Positions 25,726-53,659 of a stretch of 64,000 nt of DNA are shown in pieces; position 1 is the stretch's first letter; every line of letters begins with the position of its first letter. The notes beneath the pieces were generated by a model that was given only the letters and a program-made list of their open reading frames with translations, was not told the origin of the DNA and did not search any database. The translations under genes were made by a program, and so were the position numbers. The DNA is from Escherichia coli (GTDB taxonomy: Bacteria > Pseudomonadota > Gammaproteobacteria > Enterobacterales > Enterobacteriaceae). The stretch is from assembly GCF_044324875.1 (NCBI RefSeq), contig NZ_CP172185.1; one strand, written 5' to 3'.

Positions 25726-25736
25726 CTTTAAAATCC
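25726..25736 (+). promoter_or_regulatory. late-promoter-like motif GCTTTAAAATC about 60 bp upstream of first late gene
   Basis: One of four related motifs at matching distances from late-operon starts. Confidence 0.35.
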
Positions 25737-25787
25737 TCCGCGCCACGCTTTTGCCATGCTGTCTCCACACAACAAGGAGACATTTTC

Positions 25788-26138: not shown

Positions 26139-26140
26139 TC

Positions 26141-28733: not shown

Positions 28734-28749
28734 CAGAAGGAACAACAGT

Positions 28750-30123: not shown

Positions 30124-30157
30124 ACGCGTTGCTGGATGAACGGGAAGGATTACAGAA

Positions 30158-35158: not shown

Positions 35159-35160
35159 CA

Positions 35161-35619: not shown

Positions 35620-35769
35620 GTTTTCTCTCTTCAGGCGGGTGATTTATCATTGCCAGCGAATGAGGGGCTGTATTACCTTTATAAAGGCTTTACAGCCTCT
35701 GTTTTATAACTGCCTCCGGTTCACCACATTGCTTTCCCTGTCCTTCTCCCCTGATGTTTTCTAAAGCAG

Positions 35770-35781
35770 ATTAAAATCGCC
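35770..35781 (+). promoter_or_regulatory. late-promoter-like motif GATTAAAATCGCC upstream of protease/scaffold gene
   Basis: Second instance of the shared motif, about 60 bp upstream of ATG 35834 in a 214-bp noncoding gap. Confidence 0.35.
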
Positions 35782-35833
35782 GGGCCCGCATTTCTCACAA
35801 ACTGTCTCCGACAACATAACGCGGGACAGCAAA

Positions 35834-36949: not shown

Positions 36950-36958
36950 GGAGAAAGC

Positions 36959-37912
36959 ATGTCTGATTACTTAAAAAATAAACGCGTTGTTGATCCTGTT
37001 ATGACCAGCATCGCGCGTGGCTACAGGAATGCAGCCTTCATCGGAGAACATATATTTCCGGTTGTGTATACGGACAGAGAAGCGGTAACGGTCCCCGTTT
37101 TCGGGAGATCAGCGTTTGTGGAAGTTGATACCGTCCGTGCTGTGGGGGCAGACAGTAATGTTCTGATCAGGGAAAAGAGCAGTACGCTGGATCTGGTGTT
37201 GCATGAGCACGATCTTGCTGCACCTGTGGACTACCGTGAACAGACGGAGTCAATGTTCAACGAAGAGGCCAAGGCAATCCGGCGGGTGACAAATGGCATT
37301 CATCTTCGCCGTGAGCTTATTGCTGCCCGTCTTGCGCAGGACAAAAAAGTGTACCCGGCATCTTCGGTAAAGACGATGACGTCTGTTGAACGCTGGGAAG
37401 GAGGCCATGGTGATCCTGTTGAGGTCATTGAGGGAGGCATTGAAGCTGTGCGAAGTAAGATCGGGGTCAGACCCAATCTGATGGTCATGGGAGCCAGTGT
37501 GATGCCCCTGCTGAGATATCATCCAGCCATCACCACTGCTCTGGGACTTAATGAGAGAAAACGGATCACCCCGCAAATCCTCAGGGAGCTTTTTGGTCTG
37601 GACAAGGTCATTGTGGGTGAGCCTGTTTCCATGGCATCCATGACTGATGCAGGCAACCGGAACAAATATCCGGTGGACATCTGGGGAGATAATCTCATGC
37701 TCTTCTATGTCACTCCACCGCGAGAAGGTGCCGAAAGTGCCGACGAAAATGAACCATCGTTCGGGTATACCCTGCGACGTAAGGGGATGCCGGTGGCAGA
37801 TAAATACGATGGAGTGGGCGGAAAGGTGAAGTACTGCCGTTATACCGACATCTATAAGGTGGCGGTCGTGGGCGGGGATGCCGGTTATCTCGTTACAAAT
37901 ATAGTGAAGTAA
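36959..37912 (+). CDS. major capsid protein (Mu T-like)
   Basis: 317-aa ORF after scaffold gene; strong SD AAGGAGAA. Confidence 0.65.
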   Translation: MSDYLKNKRVVDPVMTSIARGYRNAAFIGEHIFPVVYTDREAVTVPVFGRSAFVEVDTVRAVGADSNVLIREKSSTLDLVLHEHDLAAPVDYREQTESMFNEEAKAIRRVTNGIHLRRELIAARLAQDKKVYPASSVKTMTSVERWEGGHGDPVEVIEGGIEAVRSKIGVRPNLMVMGASVMPLLRYHPAITTALGLNERKRITPQILRELFGLDKVIVGEPVSMASMTDAGNRNKYPVDIWGDNLMLFYVTPPREGAESADENEPSFGYTLRRKGMPVADKYDGVGGKVKYCRYTDIYKVAVVGGDAGYLVTNIVK

Positions 37913-37922
37913 GGAGAAGTCT

Positions 37923-38258
37923 ATGACTACACAGCAGGTCACTCTGACCATGACAGTCACAGCCAGTACTGCACTTACTCAGCAGAGGTTTGTGGGAGCA
38001 GATAACGGCGCATGTAAGCAGGGTGCCGTTGCCGTCGGTGTCGCCCAGGTGGATGCCCGTGCAGGTGATCTGACCCCGGTGAGTGTGACCGGGATCCTTG
38101 CAGTTGAAACGGGAGCGGCAGTTTCCAGAGGGGCACTGGTACAGTCTGATGCCAAATCAAGGGCTGTTCCTCAGGCTGACAGTGGTAAATCCTGTGGCAT
38201 TGCACTGGATGAGGCAAAGGCCGAAGGCGACATCATCCGTATCCTGCGCGGGGTGTGA
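37923..38258 (+). CDS. hypothetical head-associated protein (111 aa)
   Basis: ORF in head module. Confidence 0.45.
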   Translation: MTTQQVTLTMTVTASTALTQQRFVGADNGACKQGAVAVGVAQVDARAGDLTPVSVTGILAVETGAAVSRGALVQSDAKSRAVPQADSGKSCGIALDEAKAEGDIIRILRGV

Positions 38259-38259
38259 G

Positions 38260-38706
38260 ATGTACTGCACCCTGGAGGATTTGCTTGCGCAGGTGCCGGA
38301 ACGAACGCTGATCGAGCTCACCAGTGAAGATATGGACTTCGACTCGCCTGCAACAGTGAATACCCGTGTGGTGGACAGCTGTATCCGCTATGCCGACGAG
38401 CTGATTGATGCCCATCTGCGCGGACGCTATATCCTGCCGCTGGCGGAGATACCGACCGTTCTGCGGGACATTGCCATCACGCTGGTCCGTTACCGGCTCT
38501 ACGCCCGCCGCCCGGAAGGTGACCTCCCGGATACGGTGAAGGATGACCACAAAGAAGCGCTGCGGCAACTCAGGGAGTTACGTGATAACAGGCTCACGCT
38601 GGGGCTGCCGTCCACTCAGAAAGATGTGCCTGAGCCAGGAGAGTTTCGTGTACGCAGTCGCCCGGCCACTTTCGGCGGTCGTGACGGTTTACTGGAGAAA
38701 TACTGA
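38260..38706 (+). CDS. head-tail connector-type protein (148 aa)
   Basis: Start at MYCTLEDLL directly after upstream stop. Confidence 0.5.
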   Translation: MYCTLEDLLAQVPERTLIELTSEDMDFDSPATVNTRVVDSCIRYADELIDAHLRGRYILPLAEIPTVLRDIAITLVRYRLYARRPEGDLPDTVKDDHKEALRQLRELRDNRLTLGLPSTQKDVPEPGEFRVRSRPATFGGRDGLLEKY

Positions 38707-39170
38707 TGAACGTTCTGCCCGTCCTTGATGCGGTACTGGCCCGGTTACGCGAGAACCTGCCGCAACTGCAGGTGGAGTACTTCCCGGAGAAACCGGCTGA
38801 ATATCGCCTGAACCATCCGGTTGGCGCGTTGCTGCTGAGCTATGCCGGTTCGCGCTTTGACAGGCCGGATGATACCGGTGCGGTGATCCAGCCTCAGACT
38901 ATCCAGCTCTGCGTCACGGTGGTCTTCCGCCAGCTCAACGGTAAAAAAGGGGCGATTAATGTCCTGGATGCTGTCCGCCGCATTCTCGGTGGCTACACCC
39001 CGCCCGGCTGCCGCCGTCGTATCTGGCTGACCCGCGAGGTGTTTATCGGTGAAGTCAGGGGGCTGTGGCAATACGCCCTCGACTTCGCGACTGAAAGCGT
39101 CTTTATCGAAGACAGCGATTTACCGTCCGGCCCGCTGTTAACCGAAGTGAACTATGAGGAAAGCGAGTGA
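38706..39170 (+). CDS. hypothetical head completion protein (154 aa)
   Basis: ORF; start overlaps upstream stop. Confidence 0.5.
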   Translation: MNVLPVLDAVLARLRENLPQLQVEYFPEKPAEYRLNHPVGALLLSYAGSRFDRPDDTGAVIQPQTIQLCVTVVFRQLNGKKGAINVLDAVRRILGGYTPPGCRRRIWLTREVFIGEVRGLWQYALDFATESVFIEDSDLPSGPLLTEVNYEESE

Positions 39171-39421
39171 TGAAAGCATACCGCTATTCCGGCCCGGCCA
39201 GCGGCGTCACGCTGTCGGACGGAACCGAAATCCTGCTCTGGCCGGGGAAGACGTTTTCCCTGCCGGAGGAGCATGACTACGTGAAGGTACTGGTGGCGCT
39301 GAAACATCTGACGCCGGTACCTGAAGAGACTAAACTCGCCGGCACACCGGCTGTGCAGTCACCAAAGCGCAGAAGCAGCAGTGACAGCGAAGTGAAAACG
39401 GAGGACACCCATGGCAGCTAA
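39167..39421 (+). CDS. hypothetical protein (84 aa)
   Basis: ORF with overlapping start/stop in late operon. Confidence 0.4.
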   Translation: MMKAYRYSGPASGVTLSDGTEILLWPGKTFSLPEEHDYVKVLVALKHLTPVPEETKLAGTPAVQSPKRRSSSDSEVKTEDTHGS

Positions 39422-40838
39422 CTATCTGCATGGTCCCGAAACCATTGAGGTGGAAAACGGTGCCCGCCCGGTTAAAACGGTGAAATCTGCCGTTATTGGC
39501 CTGATTGGTACCGCCCCGATGGGGGACGTCAATACGCTGGTACAGTGCCTGTCTGAGAAAGACGCAGCGGCATTTGGCAGCCAGTTCACCGGCTTTACCA
39601 TTCCGCAGGCGCTGGATGCGATTTATGACCATGGTGCAGGCACCGTTCTGGTCATTAACGTCCTCGACCCGGCGAAACATAAAACGGCGATCCAGGGTGA
39701 AGTGGTTACCTTTGACAAATCGACAGGGCAGGCCAGACTTGCGCATCCGGTTGTCGCTAATGTGGTGGTGAAAAACAGTGAAGGCAGCACCACCCACACG
39801 GCGAACACGGACTACCGTGTTGATGCGCAGGCGGGTGTGCTCACGAACCTGGGCAAGGCTATTGAGGCCGGTGGCAGCGTGAAGGTGAGCTATGAGTACG
39901 CGGACCCGTCGAAGGTGACTGCGGCGGACATCATCGGCGGGGTGAACAGCGCCGGAAACCGAACCGGCATGAAGCTGCTTAACGACAGCTTCAACCTGTA
40001 CGGCTATTTTGCCAAAATTCTGATTGCGCCGGTGTTCTGCACCCAGAAGAGTGTAGCAGTTGAGCTTATCGCCATGACAGAGAAGCTGGGCGCGGTAACC
40101 TACATTGATGCGCCTGTCGGTACCACCTTTGCACAGGCTCTGGCAGGTCGTGGCCCGGAAGGCACCATTAACTTCAATACCAGCTCCGACCGCGTCCGTC
40201 TGTGCTATCCGCATGTGAAGGTATATGACCCGGTGACAAACACGGAGCGTCTGGAGCCGCTCAGCCAGCGTGCAGCAGGTCTGCGTGCCAGAGTCGATCT
40301 GGACAAGGGCTACTGGTGGTCATCCTCCAATCAGGAGATTCTGGGGATCACCGGCGTGGAGCGCCAGCTGTCCGCGATGATTGATGACCCGCAGAGTGAG
40401 GTGAACCTGCTTAACGAACAGGGGATCACCACGGTATTCAGCAGTTACGGCAGCGGCCTTCGTCTGTGGGGTAACCGGACGGCAGCATGGCCAACGGTCA
40501 CCCATATGCGTAACTTTGAGAACGTTCGCCGCACCGGTGATGTGATCAACGAGTCCATTCGTTATTTCAGCCAGCAGTACATCGACATGCCGATTACTCA
40601 GGCGCTGATTGATGCACTGACGGAGTCGGTCAACGCCTACGGTCGCAAAATGACTGGTGATGGTGCGGTACTGGGCTTCCGTTGCTGGTTTGATCCGGCC
40701 CGCAATCCGGAGACGGAGCTGGCCGCCGGGCACCTGTTGCTGAGCTACAAATATACGCCACCACCGCCGCTGGAGCGACTGACGTTTGAGACTGAGATCA
40801 CCTCGGAATACCTGTTAACCCTGAAAGGGGGCAACTGA
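39411..40838 (+). CDS. contractile tail sheath protein
   Basis: 475-aa ORF immediately before tail tube gene. Confidence 0.75.
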   Translation: MAANYLHGPETIEVENGARPVKTVKSAVIGLIGTAPMGDVNTLVQCLSEKDAAAFGSQFTGFTIPQALDAIYDHGAGTVLVINVLDPAKHKTAIQGEVVTFDKSTGQARLAHPVVANVVVKNSEGSTTHTANTDYRVDAQAGVLTNLGKAIEAGGSVKVSYEYADPSKVTAADIIGGVNSAGNRTGMKLLNDSFNLYGYFAKILIAPVFCTQKSVAVELIAMTEKLGAVTYIDAPVGTTFAQALAGRGPEGTINFNTSSDRVRLCYPHVKVYDPVTNTERLEPLSQRAAGLRARVDLDKGYWWSSSNQEILGITGVERQLSAMIDDPQSEVNLLNEQGITTVFSSYGSGLRLWGNRTAAWPTVTHMRNFENVRRTGDVINESIRYFSQQYIDMPITQALIDALTESVNAYGRKMTGDGAVLGFRCWFDPARNPETELAAGHLLLSYKYTPPPPLERLTFETEITSEYLLTLKGGN

Positions 40839-41359
40839 TGTCAAAGATTGAGATAAACCGCATCACGAATGCCAACATCTATCTGGATGGTACTAACCTG
40901 CTGGGACGGGCTGAGGAAGTTAAACTCCCCGATGTCTCCATGATTATGCAGGAACACAAGGCGCTGGGGATGGTGGGTAAGGTGGAACTCCCGGCTGGTT
41001 TTGACAAACTGGAAGGCGAAATCAAATGGAACAGCTTTTACCGCGATGCGATGCTGTCTGCCGCGAACCCGTACAGGTCGCTGGCACTGCAGTGTCGTTC
41101 CAGCGTCCAGCGCTACAGCTCGCAGGGGCTGATTGACGAAATCCCGCTGGTCACCTTCCTGACGATTATGTTCAAGAAGAACCCGCTGGGGACGTTCAAA
41201 CAGCACGAGAACGCCGAGTTCTCCAGTAGCTTCACATGCACGTATATCAGACAGGTACTGGATGGTGAAGAGCTGCTGCAACTGGACTATCTGGCCAACA
41301 TCTTCCGGGTCGGCGGTGTTGATCAACTGACTGACTACCGTATCAATATCGGGGGCTGA
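40838..41359 (+). CDS. tail tube protein
   Basis: 173-aa ORF after sheath. Confidence 0.7.
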   Translation: MSKIEINRITNANIYLDGTNLLGRAEEVKLPDVSMIMQEHKALGMVGKVELPAGFDKLEGEIKWNSFYRDAMLSAANPYRSLALQCRSSVQRYSSQGLIDEIPLVTFLTIMFKKNPLGTFKQHENAEFSSSFTCTYIRQVLDGEELLQLDYLANIFRVGGVDQLTDYRINIGG

Positions 41360-41361
41360 CG

Positions 41362-41643
41362 GTGAGTGTTGAACTGACGGATAAAGGAGGACGATGTGCG
41401 GCACTGGGCATGTCAAATGGTACGTGGTTTACCCTCCTTGATATTCCGGGGGTGGAAACCCTTTTTAATACCCGTAAAACCAATGACCCGATTGACTGCA
41501 CACGTTCAAAGGCCCGCAGACTGGCGGATTTGATTGAAGCATGGGAGCCTCCCGACCACTGGTTCTCCGGCACCGGCAAATCTGAGGGAAAGACGCTTCT
41601 CATCGCTTTCCTGCGTAACTGCAAGGGGTTTCGCACTTGCTGA
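41362..41643 (+). CDS. hypothetical small protein (start uncertain)
   Basis: ORF with GTG start; weak translation signals. Confidence 0.3.
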   Translation: MSVELTDKGGRCAALGMSNGTWFTLLDIPGVETLFNTRKTNDPIDCTRSKARRLADLIEAWEPPDHWFSGTGKSEGKTLLIAFLRNCKGFRTC

Positions 41644-41677
41644 CATCACAGGGGCTCCGGCCCCTTCTTCTTAATCT

Positions 41678-41690
41678 CCTTTAATATCCG
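41678..41690 (+). promoter_or_regulatory. late-promoter-like motif CCTTTAATATCCG upstream of tail chaperone/tape-measure genes
   Basis: 11-mer CCTTTAATATC identical to the motif at 48029; preceded by GC hairpin plus T-tract at 41651-41672. Confidence 0.4.
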
Positions 41691-41740
41691 TCACGCGCTT
41701 CTCCCGACATACTGCCCTGAACTTACACAGGAGCACAATC

Positions 41741-42076
41741 ATGTCACAGACCCCATCCGATACTTTTAAATTGTCTTATCCCTTCACCACTGCTGCAGGC
41801 ACCAGAATTGAGCTGGTTGAACTGAAACGCCTGACGGTAAAAGACCTGAAGCAGGTGCGCAAAATCAGCAAAAACCCGGCAGACTGGGACGAACCGCTGA
41901 TTGCCCGCAGTACTGGTCTTCTCCCGGAAGATCTCGACAATATGGATCTGGCTGATTACCTGCAGTTACAGAAACGATTTCAGCTCATCACGGGGATGGG
42001 TGAGAGCGACAAAGGCGCTGACGCAGGCGCAGGGGCTGCTGGCGAGATGGTTCCGGTTTCAGCCGGGGGAGATTGA
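41741..42076 (+). CDS. tail assembly chaperone (gpE/gpG-like)
   Basis: 111-aa acidic ORF between tube and tape measure; overlapping ORF 41901..42158 in +1 frame. Confidence 0.5.
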   Translation: MSQTPSDTFKLSYPFTTAAGTRIELVELKRLTVKDLKQVRKISKNPADWDEPLIARSTGLLPEDLDNMDLADYLQLQKRFQLITGMGESDKGADAGAGAAGEMVPVSAGGD

Positions 42077-42233
42077 TGCCCTCGATACTGACGATCTGGA
42101 GATGTGGCTGGAGCAGGCTGAAGAGCAAATAAAAAGCGAGTACGGCGACAAATCATAGTACAGACAGCCGCCAGTAGCGGCTGTTCTGCGTTATCCCCTC
42201 ACGTCTTTTCACCTTCCCCGGAGGTTAACCACT

Positions 42234-45185
42234 ATGTCGGGACAGTTTTCAGTCGGCGTTGTTATCGGCGGGATGATTGGCAGCACATTCCGTTCTGCAA
42301 TGAGCGGTACCCGCCGTGCGCTTGATTCCCTGAGCGATACCTCACGCCGCCTGCAGGAACGTCAGAACGCTTTAACCCGTGCAACAGAACGTTATGGTCA
42401 ACTGGGCTCTTCCCGGATGCAGCATCTCAACAGCGAGCTGCTGCGGGTAAGCCGCACCATGGAGCAAATTGAGCGCCAGCAGCGCCGTCTGTCAGCGGCA
42501 TCAGCCACCAGTGATGCGCTGAAAGCTAACCGCATGGCGCTGTATGGTCAGGGGATTGAAGCGTATGGCATGGCACAGACTGTTTATCATACGGTTTCCC
42601 CTGCCGTTCAGCAGTCCATGTCTTTTCAGGACAAAATGATTGATATGTCGATCACCGCAAAATATGACAATAAAACGCGGGATGCACTTGCCGGACAGAT
42701 AAAAGGCTGGGCGCAAAAATACAATCAGTATCAGGATGAACTGCAGGAGGCGGTGGGTTCGCTCATCAGCGACAATATTGATAACTTGTCAGATATCGGT
42801 TTTCTGATGCCGGATATTGCCCGCGCGGCAACGGCAACACGCACGTCATCTCAGGACTGGGCAAAAGTGGCCGCAGTCTGGCAAAACTCCCTGAAAGGTG
42901 CGGCCAGAGATTTTAGTGCCGTCCAGAATATTATGGCTTATGCCGGTGACCAGGGGTCATTTGAAATCCCGGATCAGGTCAAGTGGATGCAGTCCCTGGC
43001 CCCAATGATGGCGGGTATTGCCAGTGGAAAAGAGGCTGTTGCTGAAATCGGGGCCAGTCTCCAGATAGCAAAAATCGGTGCGGGCTCCACCGACGAAGCA
43101 GCCAATAATTTTAAAAACTTTCTTACCAAAATTTTTGCCCGCGATACTCAGAAACAGTTTGCTGATCTGGGTATTGATTTGCAGGGTTCTGTTGCGAGTT
43201 ATAAGGCTGCGGGGATCTCTCCGATTGAAGGGATGTTGAGTGTTATAGAACGTTACCTCAATGCCAAAAGCCCCGAAGCGCTGGCCGGCTTCAAATCCGC
43301 CATGAAAATAAAGAATGATACGGCAAGAGATGAGGCACTTCAGGCTCTGGCGAAAAACTTTGGTCTGGGCGATATGTTCGCGGATATGCAGGTCATGGCA
43401 TTTATCCGCCCGATGCTGGCCAACATGGACAGATATCGCGAGATCCGTGCCGGTGCTCTCAGGGCTGCGGATAACGATTTGCTTGCCAGTGCTTACGATC
43501 AGCGGCTGAAATCTCCCCTTGAAGCCACTAAAGCGCTTATGGTCAGCAGTCGCGATCTGGCTATTACGCTGGGCGATCAGCTCGCCCCCTCTTTTATTTC
43601 TCTGACTCAGGAGCTGATCCCACTCATTCAGGGGGCAAAACACTGGGTGGCGACTCACCCGCAATTTGTCAGTGGGGCTTTTAAGCTCATCAGTGCGCTC
43701 CTTGCGATTAAGATAGCGACTGTTGGTCTCAAACTGGGGCTGAATCTCCTTATTTCCCCCTTTGTGAACGTCTGGAAAACTGCTGTTTTACTCCGGACCA
43801 ACTGGCATCGACTGACTACCGCACTAGGAGAAGGTGGCAAATTACGCTGGCTTGTCACTGGATTTAGCCGACTGACCAGCGGAGGACTGAAACTCAGCAA
43901 AGTTCTGGCGGGCAGCCTCGTTCGCGGTTTTATGAGCGCTGCACGTGCCGTTCTCTGGATTGGGCGAGCGCTGATGATGAATCCCATCGGTCTCGTTATC
44001 ACCGCTGTCGCGGCAGCAGCTTACCTTATCTACCGCAACTGGGGGACAGTCAGTGGCTGGTTTAAACAGCGCTGGGCTGACATTCAGGAAGCCTTTAACG
44101 GCGGTATCGCGGGAACTGGTAAGCTGCTGATTAACTGGTCGCCGGCAGGGCTGCTCTATAAAGCCTTTGCGGCTGCGCTGAAATATTTCGGCGTTGCTCT
44201 GCCGGCAAAGTTCACCGACTTCGGTGGCCATCTTGTCGACGGTCTGATTAACGGTATCAAAAACAAATGGGGGTCGCTCAAATCCAGTGTAACCGGAATG
44301 GGTGACAGCATCAGTAGCTGGTTTAAACAGTGCTGGTCTGACATTCAGGAGGCCTTTAACGGCGGTATCGCGGGAACTGGTAAGCTGCTGATTAACTGGT
44401 CGCCGGCAGGTCTGCTCTATAAAGCCTTTGCAGCTGCGCTGAAATATCTTGGTGTTGATCTGCCGGCAAAGTTCACCGACTTCGGTGGCCATCTTGTCGA
44501 CGGTCTGATTAACGGTATCAAAAACAAATGGGAGTCGCTCAAATCCAGTGTAACCGGAATGGGTGACAGCATCAGTGGCTGGTTCAGTGAAAAGCTGGGT
44601 ATTCATTCGCCGAGCCGCGTGTTTATGGGCTTTGGTGACAATATCGCGCAGGGGGCCGCCATTGGCCTGCAGCGGAGCACTCCGATTGCAGCTCTGGCCG
44701 GGCAGCGAATGGCCAGTGAACTGCTCCCCAGAATGCCCGTGAGCATTCAGGGGCCAGAAATACGGGATAACACTTCAGGTGTTCGCTTCAGTATGCCGTT
44801 GCCCGATATCAACGGGTTTATGTCGTCTGCTAAAAATGCGATCGGATCCGTAATCAATAGTTTGTCTTCCATGCCCGCTATTCCGATCTCCACCCGGGCA
44901 TCGACTTTACCAGGTCAACGTCTGGCAAATGAGATGACACCGGATGTTCCCCGTATCCCCTCGCCTGAAATCCTGGCTGCCGGATATTCAGGCCGTGGTG
45001 CAGCTGCAACCGGCGGTGGAACGTCTGGTGGTATCCAGGTCAGCTTTAATCCTCAGTTTTTCCTCAATGGCAGGGAAACCACAGCGCCTGCAGGACTGAC
45101 TGGTGCCCTGAATATGAGTCTGCATGAGCTGGAAAAAATGCTGGAGCGTCTGCTGGCTCAGAAACAACGTAAGGAGTACCGCTGA
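42234..45185 (+). CDS. tail tape measure protein
   Basis: 983-aa ORF with coiled-coil N-terminus, TM segments and internal tandem duplication. Confidence 0.8.
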   Translation: MSGQFSVGVVIGGMIGSTFRSAMSGTRRALDSLSDTSRRLQERQNALTRATERYGQLGSSRMQHLNSELLRVSRTMEQIERQQRRLSAASATSDALKANRMALYGQGIEAYGMAQTVYHTVSPAVQQSMSFQDKMIDMSITAKYDNKTRDALAGQIKGWAQKYNQYQDELQEAVGSLISDNIDNLSDIGFLMPDIARAATATRTSSQDWAKVAAVWQNSLKGAARDFSAVQNIMAYAGDQGSFEIPDQVKWMQSLAPMMAGIASGKEAVAEIGASLQIAKIGAGSTDEAANNFKNFLTKIFARDTQKQFADLGIDLQGSVASYKAAGISPIEGMLSVIERYLNAKSPEALAGFKSAMKIKNDTARDEALQALAKNFGLGDMFADMQVMAFIRPMLANMDRYREIRAGALRAADNDLLASAYDQRLKSPLEATKALMVSSRDLAITLGDQLAPSFISLTQELIPLIQGAKHWVATHPQFVSGAFKLISALLAIKIATVGLKLGLNLLISPFVNVWKTAVLLRTNWHRLTTALGEGGKLRWLVTGFSRLTSGGLKLSKVLAGSLVRGFMSAARAVLWIGRALMMNPIGLVITAVAAAAYLIYRNWGTVSGWFKQRWADIQEAFNGGIAGTGKLLINWSPAGLLYKAFAAALKYFGVALPAKFTDFGGHLVDGLINGIKNKWGSLKSSVTGMGDSISSWFKQCWSDIQEAFNGGIAGTGKLLINWSPAGLLYKAFAAALKYLGVDLPAKFTDFGGHLVDGLINGIKNKWESLKSSVTGMGDSISGWFSEKLGIHSPSRVFMGFGDNIAQGAAIGLQRSTPIAALAGQRMASELLPRMPVSIQGPEIRDNTSGVRFSMPLPDINGFMSSAKNAIGSVINSLSSMPAIPISTRASTLPGQRLANEMTPDVPRIPSPEILAAGYSGRGAAATGGGTSGGIQVSFNPQFFLNGRETTAPAGLTGALNMSLHELEKMLERLLAQKQRKEYR
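44058..44590 (+). repeat. 240-bp tandem duplication inside tape measure gene (two full units plus start of a third)
   Basis: Protein repeat WFKQ(R/C)W(A/S)DIQEAFNGGIAGTGKLLINWSPAGLLYKAFAAALKY... occurs twice 80 aa apart. Confidence 0.7.
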
Positions 45186-46069
45186 TGTTTGCCGTACTGG
45201 GTGATATTGAGTTTGATCTGATTACCTACTGGGACGGCTTCGAGGCCACGTTCGGCGTCGATTATGCGGAGCATGCCCGCATCGGGGGTAAGCCTGGCCT
45301 GCAGTTCGTCGGCGACAGGCTGGACGAAATCCAGATAAGTCTGGTCTTCCATCAGCATTATTGTGCACCCGATGTGGAGCTGGCGAGACTGCGAACAACC
45401 ATGAAAGCCCATCAGGCACTGGCGCTGGTCTTCGGCAACGGTGACTATCGTGGCTGGTTCGTGATTACCGATGTGACCGCAACCAGCGAGCAGACAGACA
45501 GCACCGGTAACGTGCTGGCTGTCAGTGCCACCGTGTCTCTCCGGGAATACACCGGTGATCCGAAAAATCCTCTGCAACCACCGGCAATACGCACGAAGCT
45601 CCCGGGTGTCGGGGCGGTCTCCGGTGCCATTCCTTCACCTTCAGGGGTGGCGCAGTTCATCCGCAACGGCGTCAACTATGCGAAACAGGCGCAGTCTGTA
45701 CTCCAGACCACTATCAGCGCCGTTCGGGTGACACAGAAAATGAAGGATAACCCCGTTGTCGCACTGACCCGTGTGCCGGGGCTGATGAGCGGACTGGGTA
45801 ATATCTCCGGGGCTCTGGGGAAAAGTGTTCCGGCGTTTAACGCACTCTCTGAATCCATGCCCGATGCCATCAGTCTGGCCAGAACAGCCAGCGAAGCAGC
45901 CACGTATGTACAGCAGGCACAGTCTGCGCTGAGTGGTGTGGACAAAAGAAATATTGCAGGTGCTCTGGATACCGTTTCCGGGCAGCTTAACGCCGCCAGC
46001 ACAGCATTCAACCGCATGTCTCCGGGATTAAGTGCAATGGCCGCCAGAATACTGACGAGGAGTGTGTGA
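45185..46069 (+). CDS. tail protein (Mu N / DNA-circularisation-like)
   Basis: 294-aa ORF directly after tape measure; assignment by order. Confidence 0.5.
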   Translation: MFAVLGDIEFDLITYWDGFEATFGVDYAEHARIGGKPGLQFVGDRLDEIQISLVFHQHYCAPDVELARLRTTMKAHQALALVFGNGDYRGWFVITDVTATSEQTDSTGNVLAVSATVSLREYTGDPKNPLQPPAIRTKLPGVGAVSGAIPSPSGVAQFIRNGVNYAKQAQSVLQTTISAVRVTQKMKDNPVVALTRVPGLMSGLGNISGALGKSVPAFNALSESMPDAISLARTASEAATYVQQAQSALSGVDKRNIAGALDTVSGQLNAASTAFNRMSPGLSAMAARILTRSV

Positions 46070-46281
46070 TGTTTCTTGAACATGTTACCCGTGACGGAGA
46101 GCGCTGGGATTCGCTGGCATGGCAGTACTACGGTGACCCGCTGGGCTATCCCCGGATTATTGCCGCCAATCCGCACGTGGCCATCACGCCGGTGCTGCCC
46201 TCCGGGCTGTTGTTACTGATCCCGGTGATTGAGGCTGAAGAAGCCCGTACAGAAGAGGATATTGCCCCATGGCTGAGATAA
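46066..46281 (+). CDS. small tail protein (P2 gpX-like)
   Basis: 71-aa ORF in P2/Mu-type tail gene order. Confidence 0.45.
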   Translation: MMFLEHVTRDGERWDSLAWQYYGDPLGYPRIIAANPHVAITPVLPSGLLLLIPVIEAEEARTEEDIAPWLR

Positions 46282-47423
46282 ACAGCACTGCGCAAGTCAC
46301 TTCAGCGTTAACCAGCGTCAGCGATGTGCTGACACCGGTGTTCACTCTGTGGTATCTGCAGAAAAACATCACCTCTGATATCGCGCCTTATGTCACCCGT
46401 GTGACCTGGAGCGATAACATCAAAAATGAGTCCGATACCATTGAGGTGGAGCTGGACGACACCGATGGCCGCTGGCTGGATAAGTGGTATCCGGGCAAGG
46501 GTGACACGCTGACGCTGAAAATGGGCTATCAGGGCGAGAAGCTGCTGTCCTGCGGTACGTTCTCTATAGACGAGATCGAAGTGAGTTCGCCCGCTTCCGT
46601 TGTTTCTATCCGTGGGGTGGCCACCTCGGTTAACAGTGCTCTGCGGACTAAAACCAGTCGTGGTTTTGAGAACACCACGCTGGCAGCTGTTGCGGGGCGG
46701 ATTGCCAGAAAGCACCGACTGAAACTGGTGGGCAGCATTGAGTCCATCAGAATCGACCGGGTGACCCAGTATGCTGAAACCGACGTGGGTTTTCTGCGCC
46801 GGCTGGCCAGCGAGTATGGTTATGCAGTGAAAGTGGTCAGTGACCAGCTGATTTTTTCTCATCTGGCCACACTGCGCAGTCAGGAGCCGGTCAGGCAGTT
46901 AAAACCGCAGGATGTGGCCCGCTTTTCCCTGCGTGACACCATCAACCGGGTCTATAAATCTGCAAAGGTAAAACACCAGAAAAGCAGCAGTAAAAAACTG
47001 ATCGTCTACGAAGCTGATGGTGGTACCCGTGAAAGCGACAAAAAGCTCAAAGGTGGTAAGGTTACCAGCGCTGACTCACTTAAAGTTAACAGCCGCGTCA
47101 GCGACCCGGACAGTGCCCGGATTAAAGCGGATTCAGCACTGGCCAGACATAACGAATACCAGCAGAACGGCTCCCTGACGCTGACGGGAACACCTCAACT
47201 GACAGCAGGCAACAAAATTGAACTGGTGGGTTTTGGGCAGTTATCCGGGCCATGGCTCATAACCACTGCCCGCCATGCGTTTGACCGTAACAGCGGCTAC
47301 ACCACAGAGCTGGAAGTGGCACGGGGGCCAGTCACAAGAGGGAAAAAACAAAAAACTCAGAAACTCACGGTTTATCACCCGGATGGCAGTACATCGACGG
47401 TGATTAAGGAGAAGAAAAAATGA
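46269..47423 (+). CDS. tail protein (P2 gpD / Mu P-like)
   Basis: 384-aa ORF; size and order. Confidence 0.55.
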   Translation: MAEINSTAQVTSALTSVSDVLTPVFTLWYLQKNITSDIAPYVTRVTWSDNIKNESDTIEVELDDTDGRWLDKWYPGKGDTLTLKMGYQGEKLLSCGTFSIDEIEVSSPASVVSIRGVATSVNSALRTKTSRGFENTTLAAVAGRIARKHRLKLVGSIESIRIDRVTQYAETDVGFLRRLASEYGYAVKVVSDQLIFSHLATLRSQEPVRQLKPQDVARFSLRDTINRVYKSAKVKHQKSSSKKLIVYEADGGTRESDKKLKGGKVTSADSLKVNSRVSDPDSARIKADSALARHNEYQQNGSLTLTGTPQLTAGNKIELVGFGQLSGPWLITTARHAFDRNSGYTTELEVARGPVTRGKKQKTQKLTVYHPDGSTSTVIKEKKK

Positions 47424-48016
47424 CTGGTGTCACTCGTCAGGTCGGTACGGTCAGTGCCGTTGATGCCGACAGGGTTCAGGCCCGCGTTCGTCTGCCTGAA
47501 TGCGATAACCTGCGCACAAACTGGCTTAACGTGCTGCAGCGCAATACCCAGGATAACAAAGATTACTGGCTCCCTGACGTGGGGGAGCAGGTTGAGGTGC
47601 TGCTCGATGCCAACGGCGAGGATGGTGTTATTCTGGGCGCGGTGTATTCAGACGTCGATAAACCACCGTTCAGTGACAAAAATATCCGGGGAACCCGGTT
47701 TGCTGATGGTGCAGAGTACAGCTACAACCGGAAGACGCACACTCTGACCATCCGGGGCGGCATTGAGCATATTGTCATTGAGTGTGGTGCTGATGTGGTA
47801 TTGAAAACACAGAAAGCCACGATTGACGCACCGGAAACCGAACTTACCGGAGATCTGCGTGTCAGGGGAAAGCTGATTTACGAAGGAGGCATGGCGGGTT
47901 CTGGTGGTAAAGGTGTTACCGCGACCATCCATGGCAATATCGAGATTAAAGGGAATGCCCATGCCACGGGCAGTATGCTGTCTGATGGCGAAAACTCCAG
48001 CCACCACTCCCACTGA
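47420..48016 (+). CDS. baseplate spike protein (gpV-like)
   Basis: 198-aa ORF with Gly-rich, His-rich C-terminus. Confidence 0.6.
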   Translation: MTGVTRQVGTVSAVDADRVQARVRLPECDNLRTNWLNVLQRNTQDNKDYWLPDVGEQVEVLLDANGEDGVILGAVYSDVDKPPFSDKNIRGTRFADGAEYSYNRKTHTLTIRGGIEHIVIECGADVVLKTQKATIDAPETELTGDLRVRGKLIYEGGMAGSGGKGVTATIHGNIEIKGNAHATGSMLSDGENSSHHSH

Positions 48017-48028
48017 GCTTCTTAAACG

Positions 48029-48040
48029 CCTTTAATATCA
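48029..48040 (+). promoter_or_regulatory. late-promoter-like motif CCTTTAATATCA upstream of baseplate genes
   Basis: Shared 11-mer; followed by hairpin GGGGGCA-ATAC-TGCCCCC at 48053-48070 abutting the ATG. Confidence 0.4.
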
Positions 48041-48070
48041 GCGTTCCCGCACGGGGGCAATACTGCCCCC

Positions 48071-48418
48071 ATGAAAACGACCTCAGTATTCTGGCAACCA
48101 GCCCTGCAGGCTCCCGGCGAAATTGTCCGGGGGCTGGATGATATCCGGCAGGCGATTCAAATTATCCTGCGGACTCCCCGCGGCAGCGACCCGCATCGCC
48201 CGGAGTTCGGCAGCAATCTGCATCTTTATATCGACTGGCCTGTAGACCGGGCCATTCCGCATGTGGTGCGCGAATCCGTCGATGCCATCCGGCGCTGGGA
48301 GCCCCGCTGCCAGCTTATGTCAGTTAAACCCGCCGTCGACGGCGAACATCTTACGCTCCGGGTGAGCTGGAAAGGCTCAGACGGACAGACCCGGACTCAG
48401 GAGCTGCTATGGCGCTGA
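48071..48418 (+). CDS. baseplate protein (gpW / gp25-like)
   Basis: 115-aa ORF; size and order. Confidence 0.6.
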   Translation: MKTTSVFWQPALQAPGEIVRGLDDIRQAIQIILRTPRGSDPHRPEFGSNLHLYIDWPVDRAIPHVVRESVDAIRRWEPRCQLMSVKPAVDGEHLTLRVSWKGSDGQTRTQELLWR

Positions 48419-49512
48419 CAGAACCCGATTTTATTGAACGCGATGCCGACAAAATCACGGCAGAAATGATTGCGAAGTATGAAGCGGATACCGGCAAAAC
48501 GCTGTACCCGGCACAGGCAGAACGTCTGCTGATTGATCTGTGGGCCTATCGCGAAATGCTGGTCAGGGTTGCGGTACAGGAGGCAGCAAAGCAGAATCTG
48601 GTCGCCTTTGCCCGTGAGCCGATGATTGATTACCTCGGTGAACTGGTCGGTGTATACCGTCTTGCCGCGCAGCCTGCCACCACCACGCTCCAGTTCTCCG
48701 TAGATGAGGCACTGGCCATTGATGTGCTGATCCCGGCAGGCACCCGCGTCAGCGCTTCCGACAGCGTTATTTTTGCCACCGATACAGATGTGGTACTGAA
48801 GCCCGGATTGCTGCTGGTCAATGTCACGTCCACCTGTACCGAACCCGGTACCGCTGGTAACGGCTGGCAACCTGCGCAGGTCAGTCAGTTACTCGATGAG
48901 ATTGATAACGTCGACCTGCTGGTGAGCAATCTGACGGCCAGTTCCGGCGGTTCAGAACAGGAAGACGATGACAGGCTCCGGGAGCGTATCAGGCTGGCCC
49001 CGGAGTCATTCACCAATGCCGGAAGCCGTGGCGCATACCGCTTTCATGCCATGCAGGCCCATCCCAACATTGTCGATGTTGCTGTGCTTTCCCCGGTTCC
49101 CGGGACCGTAGATCTGTATCCGCTGCTCAGTACCGGTCTGCCGGACGGCGGTGTTCTCACGCTGGTAGAGAGTTTCTGCTCTGATGAGAAAGTCAGGCCA
49201 CTCACTGATACAGTGCGGGCTAAAACACCAGTGAAGGTGGATTACACCATTGAAGCCAGGATTACGATCTATCGTGATCAGGATGCCAGGTCTGTAAAAG
49301 ATGCCGCTAACAGCGCCATACAGAACTGGGTGGCATCACGTGCCGCCACGCTGGGGCGTGATATTGTCCCCAGCCAGATTATCAGTGCATTGTCCGTTTC
49401 CGGGGTGTACCAGGTTGAACTGGTGACACCGGCACTGCGGGTGGTGGCAGAAAACGAATGGGCAAACTGTACGGCAATCACTCTTAACATGAGTGGAGTG
49501 TCTGATGACTGA
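48409..49512 (+). CDS. baseplate protein J-like
   Basis: 367-aa ORF; order. Confidence 0.65.
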   Translation: MALTEPDFIERDADKITAEMIAKYEADTGKTLYPAQAERLLIDLWAYREMLVRVAVQEAAKQNLVAFAREPMIDYLGELVGVYRLAAQPATTTLQFSVDEALAIDVLIPAGTRVSASDSVIFATDTDVVLKPGLLLVNVTSTCTEPGTAGNGWQPAQVSQLLDEIDNVDLLVSNLTASSGGSEQEDDDRLRERIRLAPESFTNAGSRGAYRFHAMQAHPNIVDVAVLSPVPGTVDLYPLLSTGLPDGGVLTLVESFCSDEKVRPLTDTVRAKTPVKVDYTIEARITIYRDQDARSVKDAANSAIQNWVASRAATLGRDIVPSQIISALSVSGVYQVELVTPALRVVAENEWANCTAITLNMSGVSDD

Positions 49513-50083
49513 GCCATTACAACTCCCGCCACCGCTTGAGGGTGATATCAGTCTCAGGACGCTGGGAAGACTGGCAGGACGGCTGGATAACATCGACCTG
49601 AGCGTACTGATGGTCTTTCTCGTCGATATCGTCGACAGTTCCGCGCTGCCATGGCTGGGCGAGCAGTTCTCACTGTCTGGCGATGGCTGGGAGCTGGCGG
49701 AATCGGACGATGTTCGCCGCATGCTTATAAAAGCAGCCATCGAACTGCACCGGTATAAAGGGACGCCGTGGTCAATCCGGGAAGTTATCCGCCGTTTTGG
49801 CTTTGGTGAAGTGGATCTGATTGAAGGCACAGGTCGTCTCAGTTACGACGGCAATCGCAGCTATAACGGACTGTTTGTTCATGGAGATGCAGCCGCCTGG
49901 GCAGTTTATCGCGTTATTCTGAAACAGCCCATTACTAACGATCAGGCCGCGATGCTGCGTCAGACGCTGGCTGCATTTGCACCGGCCCGCTGCCATCTGG
50001 CCAGCCTGGAGTATCAGTCTGTGGCCATTCGCTATAACAATACCGCCATCCATGATGGCAGTTATAACCACGGGAGCAGTTGA
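49493..50083 (+). CDS. tail protein (gpI-like)
   Basis: 196-aa ORF before tail fibre. Confidence 0.55.
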   Translation: MECLMTEPLQLPPPLEGDISLRTLGRLAGRLDNIDLSVLMVFLVDIVDSSALPWLGEQFSLSGDGWELAESDDVRRMLIKAAIELHRYKGTPWSIREVIRRFGFGEVDLIEGTGRLSYDGNRSYNGLFVHGDAAAWAVYRVILKQPITNDQAAMLRQTLAAFAPARCHLASLEYQSVAIRYNNTAIHDGSYNHGSS

Positions 50084-51798
50084 TTATGGGAAACCTGAAT
50101 GAAACAGAAAAGTGGGAAGAAAATATCTATCAACTGGAGACATCAGATCCGGTTCTGGGTGGTGCAGACGGGATATCAAATCGAGCCCCCCGGCAACTGG
50201 CAAACAGGACGAAATGGCTGAAGAAGAAAACGGAGGAAGCCGCACAGTCACTGGCTGAACACGTACGTTCCCGTAACCACCCGGACGCGACACTGACAGC
50301 TAAGGGGTTCACCCAACTGAGCAGTGCCACCAACAGCACCTCTGAAACGCTGGCCGCCACACCAAAAGCGGTCAAGGCTGCATACGACCTGGCAGCCGGC
50401 AAGGCGCCTGCCAGCCACACTCACCCGTGGAGTCAGATAACGGGAGTGCCTGCGGCTTCACTGACGGCAAAAGGCACCGTACAACTGAGCAGCGCCACGG
50501 ACAGTCAATCAGAAACTGAGGCTGCCACGCCGAAGGCTGTGAAAATCGCGTATGATCTGGCCCGGGGAAAATACACAGCCCAGGATGCAACAACGACCCG
50601 TAAAGGGATCGTACAACTGAGCAGTGCCATCAACAGCACGTCTGAAACGCTGGCCGCCACACCGAAAGCGGTCAAGGCTGCATACGACCTGGCAGCCGGC
50701 AAGGCGCCTGCCAGCCACACTCACCCGTGGAGTCAGATAACGGGAGTGCCTGCGGCTTCACTGACGGCAAAAGGCACCGTACAACTGAGCAGCGCCACGG
50801 ACAGTCAATCAGAAACTGAGGCTGCCACGCCGAAGGCTGTGAAAATCGCGTATGATCTGGCCCGGGGAAAATACACAGCCCAGGATGCAACAACGACCCG
50901 TAAAGGGATCGTACAACTGAGCAGTGCCATCAACAGCACGTCTGAAACGCTGGCCGCCACACCGAAAGCGGTCAAGGCTGCATACGACCTGGCAGCCGGC
51001 AAGGCGCCTGCCAGCCACACTCACCCGTGGAGTCAGATAACGGGAGTGCCTGCGGCCTCGCTGACGGCAAAAGGCACCGTACAACTGAGCAGTGCCATCA
51101 ACAGCACGTCTGAAATACTGGCCGCCACACCGAAAGCGGTCAAGGCTGCATACGATCTGGCAAACGGAAAACAACCGGCAGATGCCACGCTCACTGCTCT
51201 GGCAGGACTTGCCACTGCAGCAGATCGGTTGCCTTATTTTACCGGAGCAGACCGCGCAGCGCTGGCAACCCTTACAGCTATTGGTCGCGCTATTATCGCT
51301 AAGGGCAGTATAAAAGATGTCCTCAATTACCTTGGTTTGGGGGAAGGCTCTGCATTGCCTGTTGGTGTACCGGTTCCATGGCCCACCGCCACACCGCCAG
51401 CAGGCTGGTTACAGTGCAACGGAGCTACGTTCACCAAAGAACAATATCCTGTTCTGGCCAGAGTCTACCCGACCCTCCGTCTTCCCGATTTGCGCGGTGA
51501 GTTTATCCGTGGATGGGACGGTGGTCGCAAGGTTGATACCGGGCGTGCGCTACTTTCATTTCAGGAAGGGACTATCGTATCCGGTTTTGATGATAATGAT
51601 ACCGGAGATATCAGTTCGCTCGGCTCTACACAATACGGATTTGGTGACGCTTTAACCTCTAATCAACTGGGGGTCATAAATGGCAAAAAGTGGATATTTG
51701 ATGCATCCTCTAAAGGTGCACAAAGATATGACTGGTGGGCTTATGTATCAGCTCGCCCCCGCAATATCGCATTTAACTATATCGTGAGGGCGGCGTGA
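50080..51798 (+). CDS. side tail fibre protein (Stf-like) with invertible variable C-terminus
   Basis: 572-aa ORF with repeated TAKGxVQLSSAxNSTSETLAATPKAVK motifs, PWP region and C-terminal NIAFNYIVRAA as in lambda Stf. Confidence 0.8.
   Translation: MIMGNLNETEKWEENIYQLETSDPVLGGADGISNRAPRQLANRTKWLKKKTEEAAQSLAEHVRSRNHPDATLTAKGFTQLSSATNSTSETLAATPKAVKAAYDLAAGKAPASHTHPWSQITGVPAASLTAKGTVQLSSATDSQSETEAATPKAVKIAYDLARGKYTAQDATTTRKGIVQLSSAINSTSETLAATPKAVKAAYDLAAGKAPASHTHPWSQITGVPAASLTAKGTVQLSSATDSQSETEAATPKAVKIAYDLARGKYTAQDATTTRKGIVQLSSAINSTSETLAATPKAVKAAYDLAAGKAPASHTHPWSQITGVPAASLTAKGTVQLSSAINSTSEILAATPKAVKAAYDLANGKQPADATLTALAGLATAADRLPYFTGADRAALATLTAIGRAIIAKGSIKDVLNYLGLGEGSALPVGVPVPWPTATPPAGWLQCNGATFTKEQYPVLARVYPTLRLPDLRGEFIRGWDGGRKVDTGRALLSFQEGTIVSGFDDNDTGDISSLGSTQYGFGDALTSNQLGVINGKKWIFDASSKGAQRYDWWAYVSARPRNIAFNYIVRAA
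50287..51178 (+). repeat. tandem repeats in tail fibre gene (300-bp units, near-identical, with ~100-bp sub-repeats)
   Basis: Identical reverse-frame ORFs 50372..50593 and 50672..50893 show an exact 300-bp period; protein repeat of about 100 aa x3. Confidence 0.75.
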
Positions 51799-51804
51799 TA
51801 CCGT

Positions 51805-52419
51805 TCAGCCGGCAAGCGCCAGTGGCGCTTCCGGCCAGCTGATTTCAGGTGCCTTGCTGATATCCAGTGCGTTCAGCTCGTCGATATAATCCAGCACGGC
51901 GTTCAGTTTTGCCGTTTCTTCTGGTTTCAGACTGCGACCTGCCCGCAGTTTGAGGTTGATGAGGTCGATGGACTTCATCGCCTGATCCACCCGTTCCTGG
52001 CGTTGCAGTCTGGCAACCTCCAGCTCTGCGGCTCGCTGCCGTTCAGTATCGGTTACCCACGCCTCACCGTTCCAGGTATCCCATGGCGTGGCCGGCTGTT
52101 TTGTGGTGGTGTCCGCCGGGTAATCACCCGGCTGGGTAATCTGAACGGGAGTACCGTTCTCCGTGCTGTATACCGTCTCGCCGCGGTGATCAGGCACATG
52201 TTCCCACCCGTTCAGCGTGGCAGTCCGGCAAACCACGTAACCCGAAATTGCCTCCGGCGGTGCATCGGCGCACGAATGTGCCGGAGTACCCACCCCAAGG
52301 GCGAGATACTCCACAGAGGATGAGGTGTATTCCCGGGTTTCCTCGTCATAGTGATATACAGTGATATCGCCCGCTACAGTGGCGATACCGTTTTCATCCA
52401 GAACTGCAGTGTTACTCAT
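51805..52419 (-). CDS. tail fibre assembly protein (Tfa/U-like), cognate to the alternative fibre tip
   Basis: 204-aa ORF of Tfa type downstream of the alternative fibre C-terminus on the minus strand. Confidence 0.7.
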   Translation of the reverse strand: MSNTAVLDENGIATVAGDITVYHYDEETREYTSSSVEYLALGVGTPAHSCADAPPEAISGYVVCRTATLNGWEHVPDHRGETVYSTENGTPVQITQPGDYPADTTTKQPATPWDTWNGEAWVTDTERQRAAELEVARLQRQERVDQAMKSIDLINLKLRAGRSLKPEETAKLNAVLDYIDELNALDISKAPEISWPEAPLALAG

Positions 52420-52901
52420 TAAACTGCCCTCACAATGTAATTAAGTGCAATGCTACGGGGTCTGACAGTGATACCCTTCGCATACCCGCTTCTGATAGAG
52501 GTCAGAATAGTAGCCTGCATACCATTGTCTGACATTGCCACGACAGGATCGCTGAATGTTGTCCCGTCCGGCATTTTAAAGCTGCCCTCACGAAGGTCTG
52601 TAATGGAATCTTCATTGTTGAATCCCATGCCGACTATCCCCGAGGTTCCCGTAGTGTCCTGGTTATAATAATCCAGCATTGCTGTTCTTAACAGCGTTGC
52701 CCCTTGTGCGGACAGCAACTTACGTCCTGTATCAACTTTGCGCCCGTCGTCCCATCCACGGATAAACTCACCGCGCAAATCGGGAAGACGGAGGGTCGGG
52801 TAGGCTCTGGCCAGAACAGGATATTGTTCTTTTGTAAAGGCGCGCCCGTCGCACTTTAACCAGCCTGCTGGCGGTGTGGCGGTGGGCCACGGAACAGGCA
52901 C
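52419..52901 (-). CDS. alternative tail fibre C-terminal cassette (promoterless in current orientation)
   Basis: Begins PVPWPTATPPAGWL..., paralogous to the plus-strand fibre tip, ends NYIVRAV; lies inside the invertible segment. Confidence 0.7.
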   Translation of the reverse strand: MPVPWPTATPPAGWLKCDGRAFTKEQYPVLARAYPTLRLPDLRGEFIRGWDDGRKVDTGRKLLSAQGATLLRTAMLDYYNQDTTGTSGIVGMGFNNEDSITDLREGSFKMPDGTTFSDPVVAMSDNGMQATILTSIRSGYAKGITVRPRSIALNYIVRAV

Positions 52902-53002
52902 ACCAACGGGTAGCGCCGAGCCTTCTCCTAAACCAACGTTTATCTCTCAAATCCTCCTCACATTATCTCAGTACTTTAACCACTCAAAAGGGAGTATTTT
53001 TA

Positions 53003-53575
53003 ATGCTGATTGGCTACATACGTGTGTCAACAAATGACCAAAACACAGATTTGCAACGCAATGCATTAATGTGCGCAGGATGTGAACAGATTTTTGAGGA
53101 CAAAATGAGCGGAACCAAGTCGGAACGACCAGGCCTGAAACGCGCTTTAAAGTGCCTTAAAAGAGGGGATACATTGGTGGTCTGGAAGCTGGATCGGTTG
53201 GGTAGAAGAATGAAACACCTCATTGCTCTCACAGAAGAGCTACGCGCAAAAGGTGTCAATTTTCGCAGTCTGACGGATTCAATCGATACCAGCACTCCGA
53301 TGGGAAGGTTCTTTTTTCATATGATGGGTGCACTGGCAGAAATGGAGCGTGAACTGATAGTTGAGCGCACGCTGGCAGGACTGGCTGCTGCGCGAGCACA
53401 AGGGAGAGTTGGAGGACGTCGCCCGAAACTGACGAAGGAGCAGCATGAGCAGATCGCAAGATTGCTCCAGAAAGGGTATGACAGAAAGCGGCTGGCAATT
53501 ATCTATGATATTGGACTGTCAACGATCTACCGCTATCACCCTGTTGGGACTGTCATAACGGAACCTGAAATGTAA
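53003..53575 (+). CDS. gin: Gin/Hin/Cin-family serine DNA invertase
   Basis: MLIGYIRVSTNDQNTDLQRNAL... closely matches Mu Gin; ATG at 53003 with AAAGGGAG SD. Confidence 0.9.
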   Translation: MLIGYIRVSTNDQNTDLQRNALMCAGCEQIFEDKMSGTKSERPGLKRALKCLKRGDTLVVWKLDRLGRRMKHLIALTEELRAKGVNFRSLTDSIDTSTPMGRFFFHMMGALAEMERELIVERTLAGLAAARAQGRVGGRRPKLTKEQHEQIARLLQKGYDRKRLAIIYDIGLSTIYRYHPVGTVITEPEM

Positions 53576-53610
53576 TTCTTTTTCAAATAATGAAACGCCG
53601 CGTGGATGCC

Positions 53611-53640
53611 ATTTATCGCACAAGATAGAGCGCATTTATC
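53611..53640. repeat. right-end terminal repeats (ATTTATC x2), putative transposase binding sites
   Basis: CATTTATC at 53611-53617 and 53634-53640, inverted relative to left-end GATAAAT motifs. Confidence 0.4.
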
Positions 53641-53659
53641 GCGCGGCGCATCACGGAGG

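Follow-up and report, generated by a model that had tools for sequence, protein, structure and literature searches.

That the shafts of tail fibres are repetitive and prone to rearrangement is an old finding (Sandmeier 1994, cited in passages of PMC4134206). The closest described system is Phi2, a prophage of the sequence type 131 (ST131) strain EC958; according to the passages of Forde et al. (2014; PMC4134206) that cover its fibre gene, stable 5' tandem repeats of the Phage_fiber_2 type are followed by an invertible 3' region coding for a Collar domain, and these passages do not mention repeat copy-number polymorphism. Length-variable repetitive shafts, with collagen-like and coiled-coil domains, are also found in the side tail fibres of prophages from enterohaemorrhagic Escherichia coli (EHEC) (Ghosh et al. 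2012, PMC3368898). The present analysis concerns the tail-fibre gene of a BcepMu-like transposable prophage of the same lineage as Phi2, contained in a 64,000-nt stretch of E. coli DNA (contig NZ_CP172185.1), which as a whole is referred to as the window. It is very probable that in the constant, shaft-encoding part of this gene a 300-bp unit, composed of two sub-repeats named A and B, was duplicated head-to-tail, and that units have been repeatedly gained and lost among near-identical copies of the phage. A literature search found the papers on EC958 (architecture and inversion) and on the collagen-like fibres of EHEC, and no description of a 300-bp polymorphism of this fibre.

The 300-bp repeat of the fibre gene

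The fibre protein is 572 aa long when translated from the TTG at 50080 and 570 aa from the ATG at 50086, which is the RefSeq start in relatives (WP_106476169.1). It matches the Pfam family Phage_fiber_2 (PF03406) in six tandem stretches with 370.9 bits and E=1e-113, the cut-off of the family (gathering score) being 22 bits. The six sub-repeats follow each other in the order A1-B-A2-B-A3-T:

50080/50086..51798, + strand: tail-fibre gene of the P2 gpH / Mu S class; open reading frame (ORF) of 1719 bp, with Phage_fiber_2 six times and Collar
50365..51056, + strand: perfectly 300-bp-periodic tract of 692 bp (2.3 units), with the 392-bp self-match
50290..50457, + strand: sub-repeat A1, 56 aa, made of a Phage_fiber_2 core and the linker APASHTHPWSQITGVPAA
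50458..50589, + strand: sub-repeat B1, 44 aa, equal to B2 at 132/132 nt
50590..50757, + strand: sub-repeat A2, a hybrid with 5' markers from A3 and its last base from A1
50758..50889, + strand: sub-repeat B2, 44 aa, exact copy of B1
50890..51057, + strand: sub-repeat A3, 56 aa
51058..51189, + strand: terminal sub-repeat T; its first 35 nt equal B with the exception of 1 mismatch, the remainder is A-like

Tandem Repeats Finder revealed a single array at 50314..51097, with a period of 300, 2.6 copies, 98% matches and 0 indels, and a scan at offset 300 gave 392 bp as the longest exact self-match (50365..50756 = 50665..51056); since an exact match of this length has a chance probability of about 4^-392, chance is excluded as the source of the periodicity. 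A preliminary description of the window, obtained from its letters, had placed exact 300-bp units over the whole of 50287-51178; exactness is confirmed for 50365..51056 and does not extend to the entire span, where A1 and A2 have 13 differences and the core common to T and A is about 85% alike. The 13 differences between A1 and A2 all fall in nt 1-75 of the sub-repeat, and A2 differs from A3 in nt 168 only, the last base. The same description had counted three Stf-type sub-repeats per unit, and this number has to be corrected to two, A (56 aa) and B (44 aa), both belonging to Phage_fiber_2, while the motif that it quoted for them, TAKGxVQLSSAxNSTSETLAATPKAVKxAYDLAxGK, is right. A and B have about 65% DNA identity over their common core (74-75/114 nt).

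A His-Thr-His (HTH) motif is present in the linker of every A sub-repeat, for example in SHTHP at aa 109-113 (window 50404..50418), and is absent from the B units. HxH motifs bind metal ions in the trimeric gp37 and gp12 fibres of T4; by analogy, the composition in A and B sub-repeats might alter the number of metal sites in the fibre shaft.

Allelic series and hybrid junctions

Proteins with 0-4 B units were built in silico and searched by exact-sequence look-up among about 15 billion proteins; alleles were counted from this look-up together with retrieval of the contigs, and sub-repeats were recognized by the spacing of the TPxAV core. In E. coli populations, four alleles exist side by side, with 0, 1, 2 or 3 B units; a protein with 4 units (770 aa) was not found by exact look-up in that set:

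0 B units, 370 aa: 1 contig, DNA structure A1*-T
1 B unit, 470 aa: 70 contigs, DNA structure A1-B-A3-T
2 B units, 570 aa: 17 contigs, DNA structure A1-B-A2-B-A3-T
3 B units, 670 aa: 2 contigs, DNA structure A1-B-A2-B-A2-B-A3-T

The comparison of repeat number across related prophages, which the preliminary description had proposed, thus yielded four alleles, and these show 0 mismatches in the other 813 nt of the gene. Contigs longer than 1 Mb carry the 1-unit allele (CP080155.1), the 2-unit allele (CP097724, CP156662 and others) and the 3-unit allele (OZ038848.1). Counting alleles from megablast spans in complete E. coli genomes was also attempted and abandoned as ambiguous, since repeat pieces were joined; the RefSeq set contained no 1- or 3-unit genomes.

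The junctions between sub-repeats are informative on the origin of the alleles. The array arose from an A1-B-A3-T ancestor, by one unequal crossover (or replication slippage) within the 92 nt that A1 and A3 have in common at their 3' ends, which gave A1-B-[A3/A1]-B-A3-T; indeed A2, which joins the 5' part of A3 to the last base of A1, is the product expected of one unequal crossover. The 0-unit locus (L014) has an A1/A3 hybrid junction, and in another locus (L013) A1-B-A2 is followed by a B/T hybrid, the trace of a separate deletion event from an allele with at least two units. Exact head-to-tail units, whole-unit alleles on identical backgrounds and hybrid junctions, which define a copy-number-variable repeat, are all found at this locus. 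In the ST131 relatives (1281/1287 bp, 426-428 aa) the order is A, B/A hybrid, T. A set of 96 proteins that have this N-terminus in common includes short architectures such as AAA and AAAA and longer ones up to ABABABABAA, and many of these proteins contain identical units.

Relatedness of the carriers

The single-nucleotide polymorphisms (SNPs) of 18 close loci were tabulated, leaving out L006 and L011, whose upstream modules are divergent; 33 variable sites were found in 6675 nt of flanking and non-repeat sequence. Most of the 18 loci are 2-4 sites away from the window, and for most of them the host prophages are 0-4 SNPs apart in 6.7 kb. Haplotype I includes 1- and 2-unit alleles; haplotype II has one unit in the complete genome CP080155.1 and two units in CP156662 and in a 4.79-Mb contig; haplotype III has one unit in a draft and three units in the complete chromosome OZ038848.1. 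The presence of two alleles in each of three SNP haplotypes indicates that gain and loss of units are recurrent. As judged from these sequences, units have been gained or lost several times, at a pace similar to that at which about 7 kb of DNA acquires individual point mutations. The hybrid A2, the alleles with 0-3 units, the multi-allele haplotypes and the distinct deletion junctions support the earlier proposal of a recent duplication or ongoing unequal recombination that gives fibres of variable length.

The fibre protein, its neighbours and the invertible segment

The gene lies downstream of genes for Baseplate_J (48409..49512) and Tail_P2_I (49493..50083), which are annotated alike in strain MS1494. 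The C-terminal region of its product contains a Collar domain (aa 429-476) that is homologous to T4 gp37 and to the tips of short tail fibres. Tandem PF03406 matches, gpJ/gpI neighbours, a C-terminal tip and a Caudo_TAP chaperone assign it to the PF03406 class of repeat fibres, to which P2 gpH, Mu S, P1 S and lambda Stf belong. A PDB search returned no multi-repeat Phage_fiber_2 structure, and Mu S was matched through one repeat stretch (5yvq, 8ju3, 9ki1); a published contact-based model was deemed unreliable by its own authors. In Mu, the N-terminus of the fibre docks on a gpI-type wedge protein (PMC11915804). The repeat array is located wholly 5' of an inversion crossover site, so that the gene has a constant part up to about 51332 and an invertible C-terminal part at about 51332..51798. 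The features of this region are:

51320..51345, + strand: left 26-bp crossover site, TCCTCAATTACCTTGGTTTGGGGGAA, ending the constant repeat-bearing part
51805..52419, - strand: tail-fibre assembly chaperone (tfa), Pfam Caudo_TAP with E=2.9e-26, here antisense to the fibre gene
52419..52929, - strand: alternative fibre C-terminus with Collar domain (ORF and Pfam)
52923..52948, - strand: right 26-bp crossover site, GAGAGATAAACGTTGGTTTAGGAGAA on the - strand
53003..53575, + strand: serine DNA invertase of the Gin/Pin type (Pfam Resolvase, HTH_7)

Both crossover sites match those of EC958 Phi2, as given in Table 3 of PMC4134206. In the sister strains MS1494 and MS1737 the prophage occupies one insertion site, and the orientation of the segment is the only difference between them, so both orientations are natural; comparison of MS1494 and the window with MS1737 mapped the breakpoint to 51332-51338, in 7-nt intervals. 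An adjacent serine invertase, inverted 26-bp sites in the fibre frame and the occurrence of both orientations are those of a Din-family system, like Mu G, P1 C, e14 P and EC958 Phi2. After inversion, the constant part with its repeats would continue into the alternative C-terminus, and the fibre would have 587 aa.

The invertible segment, about 1.6 kb long, contains a single tfa; in the orientation of the window no sense tfa lies downstream of the expressed C-terminus, and in the MS1737 orientation the 587-aa fibre is followed by tfa in sense. In the 3-unit locus L006 (CAXKCQ010000012.1, 8020..14013), fibre and tfa are followed by a P2-like block on the opposite strand with H, I, J, W, V, S and R, which replaces the alternative C-terminus and the invertase; this arrangement looks like an inversion or a recombination between the fibre regions of two prophages. 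At two further loci (L003/L004, 4001..5287), from ST131 H105 and from LS4, which is not labelled ST131, RefSeq splits the fibre gene of the ST131-type prophage into two pseudogene fragments, although its 428-codon frame is intact (TTG/ATG start) and other records annotate a 426-aa protein in the normal way.

The host prophage

13285..53653, strand not assigned: BcepMu-like transposable prophage of 40 kb, with TG...CA ends and the 6-bp target duplication CGGAGG, inserted in lhr

The junctions of the prophage are at 13284/13285 and 53653/53654; it splits lhr, and the right flank contains Lhr residues 1258-1538 and then grxD. Its genes include a DDE transposase, a MuB-like ATPase, Gam, Mor and tail genes of the Mu/P2 type. 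The transposase has 98.8% identity with the one encoded by Escherichia phage PhiKM and 68% with those of BcepMu and phiE255. PhiKM is assigned to Bcepmuvirus; its record, being partial and rearranged, is uninformative for repeat number. The related DDE transposase, the TG..CA ends with target duplication and the many insertion sites are those expected of a Bcepmuvirus, and the transposable nature of the phage accounts for the different chromosomal sites of the carriers. Near-identical copies occur in more than 15 different chromosomal contexts of other E. coli, a distribution which suggests that the phage is, or recently was, transposing.

Two other features of the prophage were observed. A 2.6-kb IS21-family element (26966..29602) lies just after the SLT lysis gene, with istA at 27087..28733, istB at about 28730..29505 and 23-bp terminal repeats at 26973..27094; it is absent from the MS1494 copy, which is otherwise identical, and may cripple the late/lysis operon of this prophage. 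A 261-bp tandem repeat (44050..44584, 2.0 copies, 95%) is found within the tape-measure gene, and tape-measure proteins of related prophages have 983 or 1070 aa, the difference of 87 aa being one unit; tail length may likewise vary with repeat copy number. In the few loci seen, tape-measure length and fibre allele showed no correlation.

Mechanism and alternative explanations

Long exact direct repeats would misalign between sister chromosomes or between replicating phage genomes. The exchange could be RecA-dependent and unequal, or consist in a RecA-independent slipped mispairing, as suggested by what is known on the instability of direct repeats, and replicative transposition would add opportunities for both. 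Each step would add or remove 100 residues per chain of a putatively trimeric shaft, leaving untouched the N-terminus that binds the baseplate, and the receptor-binding C-terminus would be switched separately by the adjacent invertase. A benefit of changing shaft length, for example a different reach through O-antigen or capsule, is a conjecture.

Several points weigh against recurrent gain and loss as described here, or against its extent. The Phage_fiber_2 fold is not known as a trimer, the PDB match being limited to a single repeat of Mu S. About 50 complete ST131 genomes all have the same 1281/1287-bp allele, and the sister strains MS1494 and MS1737 both have two units; the rate of change is then not very high, and the ST131 monomorphism argues against a very high rate for that allele. 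Furthermore, the copy number of the window is the one given by the assembly, and some 1-unit alleles come from drafts and may be collapsed, which weakens the comparisons within haplotypes I and III. The comparison within haplotype II rests on Mb-scale contigs, and the 3-unit allele is found in a complete chromosome.

The last points raise the question of an assembly artefact, with the copy number of the window either collapsed or inflated. The exact tract of 692 bp exceeds the length of typical short reads, with which its units cannot be counted, and the longer alleles are enriched on contigs of Mb scale: 3/71 blocks with the 1-unit allele are on contigs longer than 1 Mb, compared to 6/18 of those with at least two units (Fisher p=0.0018). 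Collapse in drafts is therefore probable, as the preliminary description had anticipated and as these figures indirectly bear out; they suggest that short-read assemblies collapse the array and under-count units in public data, so that the predominance of the 1-unit allele is probably inflated. For the window itself, however, an artefact is quite improbable: the identical 1719-bp gene is present in the RefSeq complete genomes of MS1494 and PKF4, the 570-aa protein is encoded on at least 16 contigs at no fewer than 10 insertion sites, with five contigs longer than 1 Mb, the array is in frame, and the internal hybrid unit A2 is biologically coherent. The 2-unit allele of the window is real. The duplication might also be old, its ancient units being kept identical by continual homogenization through gene conversion (concerted evolution), as could be argued from the many family members with several identical units and from the wide distribution of such repeats in fibres of the P2, P1, Mu and lambda types. 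Concerted evolution is nevertheless highly improbable here. Alleles with 1, 2 and 3 units are found on prophage backgrounds separated by no SNP or by 1-2 SNPs, which represents actual gain and loss. Moreover, A2 has all 13 of the A3 markers in its 5' part and, at its 3' end, the one marker of A1; this is what a single crossover would leave, and homogenization would not be expected to preserve the combination in both the 2- and the 3-unit alleles.

A different proposal takes the gain and loss of units for granted and adds selection: the exact repeat would be maintained as a contingency locus, frequent alteration of the length of the shaft being adaptive. The recurrence of gain and loss on near-identical backgrounds, the active invertible segment in the same gene, the units that are always in frame and the great diversity of architectures in the family are in line with it. 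If so, unequal exchange would vary the length of the shaft and the invertase its tip, resulting in a repertoire of lengths and receptor-binding domains from one gene. Yet this proposal is unlikely: ST131 prophages are monomorphic over about 50 genomes, and purifying selection alone explains in-frame survival. The reverse-strand ORFs at 50372..50593 and 50672..50893 had served to recognize the duplication in the preliminary description; both are present, 300 bp apart and with identical translations. They could be regarded as real genes duplicated with the unit, being identical and open for 73 codons, a reading with hardly any probability, as they are fully contained in a + strand gene whose family match has E=1e-113, begin with TTG, are accompanied by several overlapping reverse ORFs of similar length in the same region, and are not annotated by RefSeq in the identical loci of MS1494 and PKF4. 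They were accordingly rejected as genes and are considered by-products of the repeat. Head-to-tail duplication followed by gain and loss of whole units is thus the explanation retained.

Comparison with known systems

The locus provides a clean natural allelic series, in which the remaining bases of the gene are identical and the recombination junctions can be read, in an active and widespread E. coli prophage; it is a ready system to test shaft length versus adsorption through O-antigen or capsule. It also carries a warning for genome work, since the array is apparently under-counted by short-read assemblies and an intact fibre gene is labelled as pseudogene fragments in ST131 RefSeq records.

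With EC958 Phi2 the prophage shares its lineage, the ST131 copies having 97% nucleotide identity and identical baseplate genes, as well as the gene architecture, the 26-bp crossover sites and the adjacent serine invertase described in the corresponding passages of PMC4134206. Differently from the window, the ST131 copies have three sub-repeats (A, B/A hybrid, T) and no exact 300-bp tandem array, and the invertible segment, as reported in those passages, measures 2067 bp in Phi2 versus about 1.6 kb here. The fibres of EHEC prophages resemble the present one in having Phage_fiber_2 (Pf2, PF03406) domains and paralogues that differ by whole repeat units (PMC3368898); they are lambdoid side fibres in which Gly-X-Y triplets or heptads (3 or 7 residues) are variable, whereas here the variable element is a Pf2 super-repeat of 100 residues.

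As in Mu S/S' (G segment, Gin), P1 S (C segment) and P2 gpH, the fibre gene follows baseplate genes of the gpJ/gpI type, and P2 H and fibres of P1-like plasmids match it at 65-85% nt. The Phage_fiber_2 motif in the shaft and the switching of the C-terminus by a Din-family invertase are shared with Mu S, for which one repeat stretch was matched in the PDB search, unlike the six of the window fibre. The phage differs from Mu in being BcepMu-like, with the early region oriented opposite to the late genes, and its invertible segment has a single chaperone gene, unlike the G segment.

Tandem-duplication polymorphism at long direct repeats belongs to general bacterial genetics and arises by unequal crossing-over or slipped misalignment. 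The present locus shares with such polymorphisms its exact direct repeats, its alleles of whole units and the hybrid units at its junctions, and has nothing unusual in this respect. Fibre-gene architecture and rearranging shafts were known already, and the variation is of an ordinary, well-documented kind whose mechanism is not new; what the locus adds to these systems is the exact 300-bp super-repeat with its single-crossover origin, a series of alleles with 0-3 units in a near-clonal transposable prophage, and evidence of short-read under-counting.

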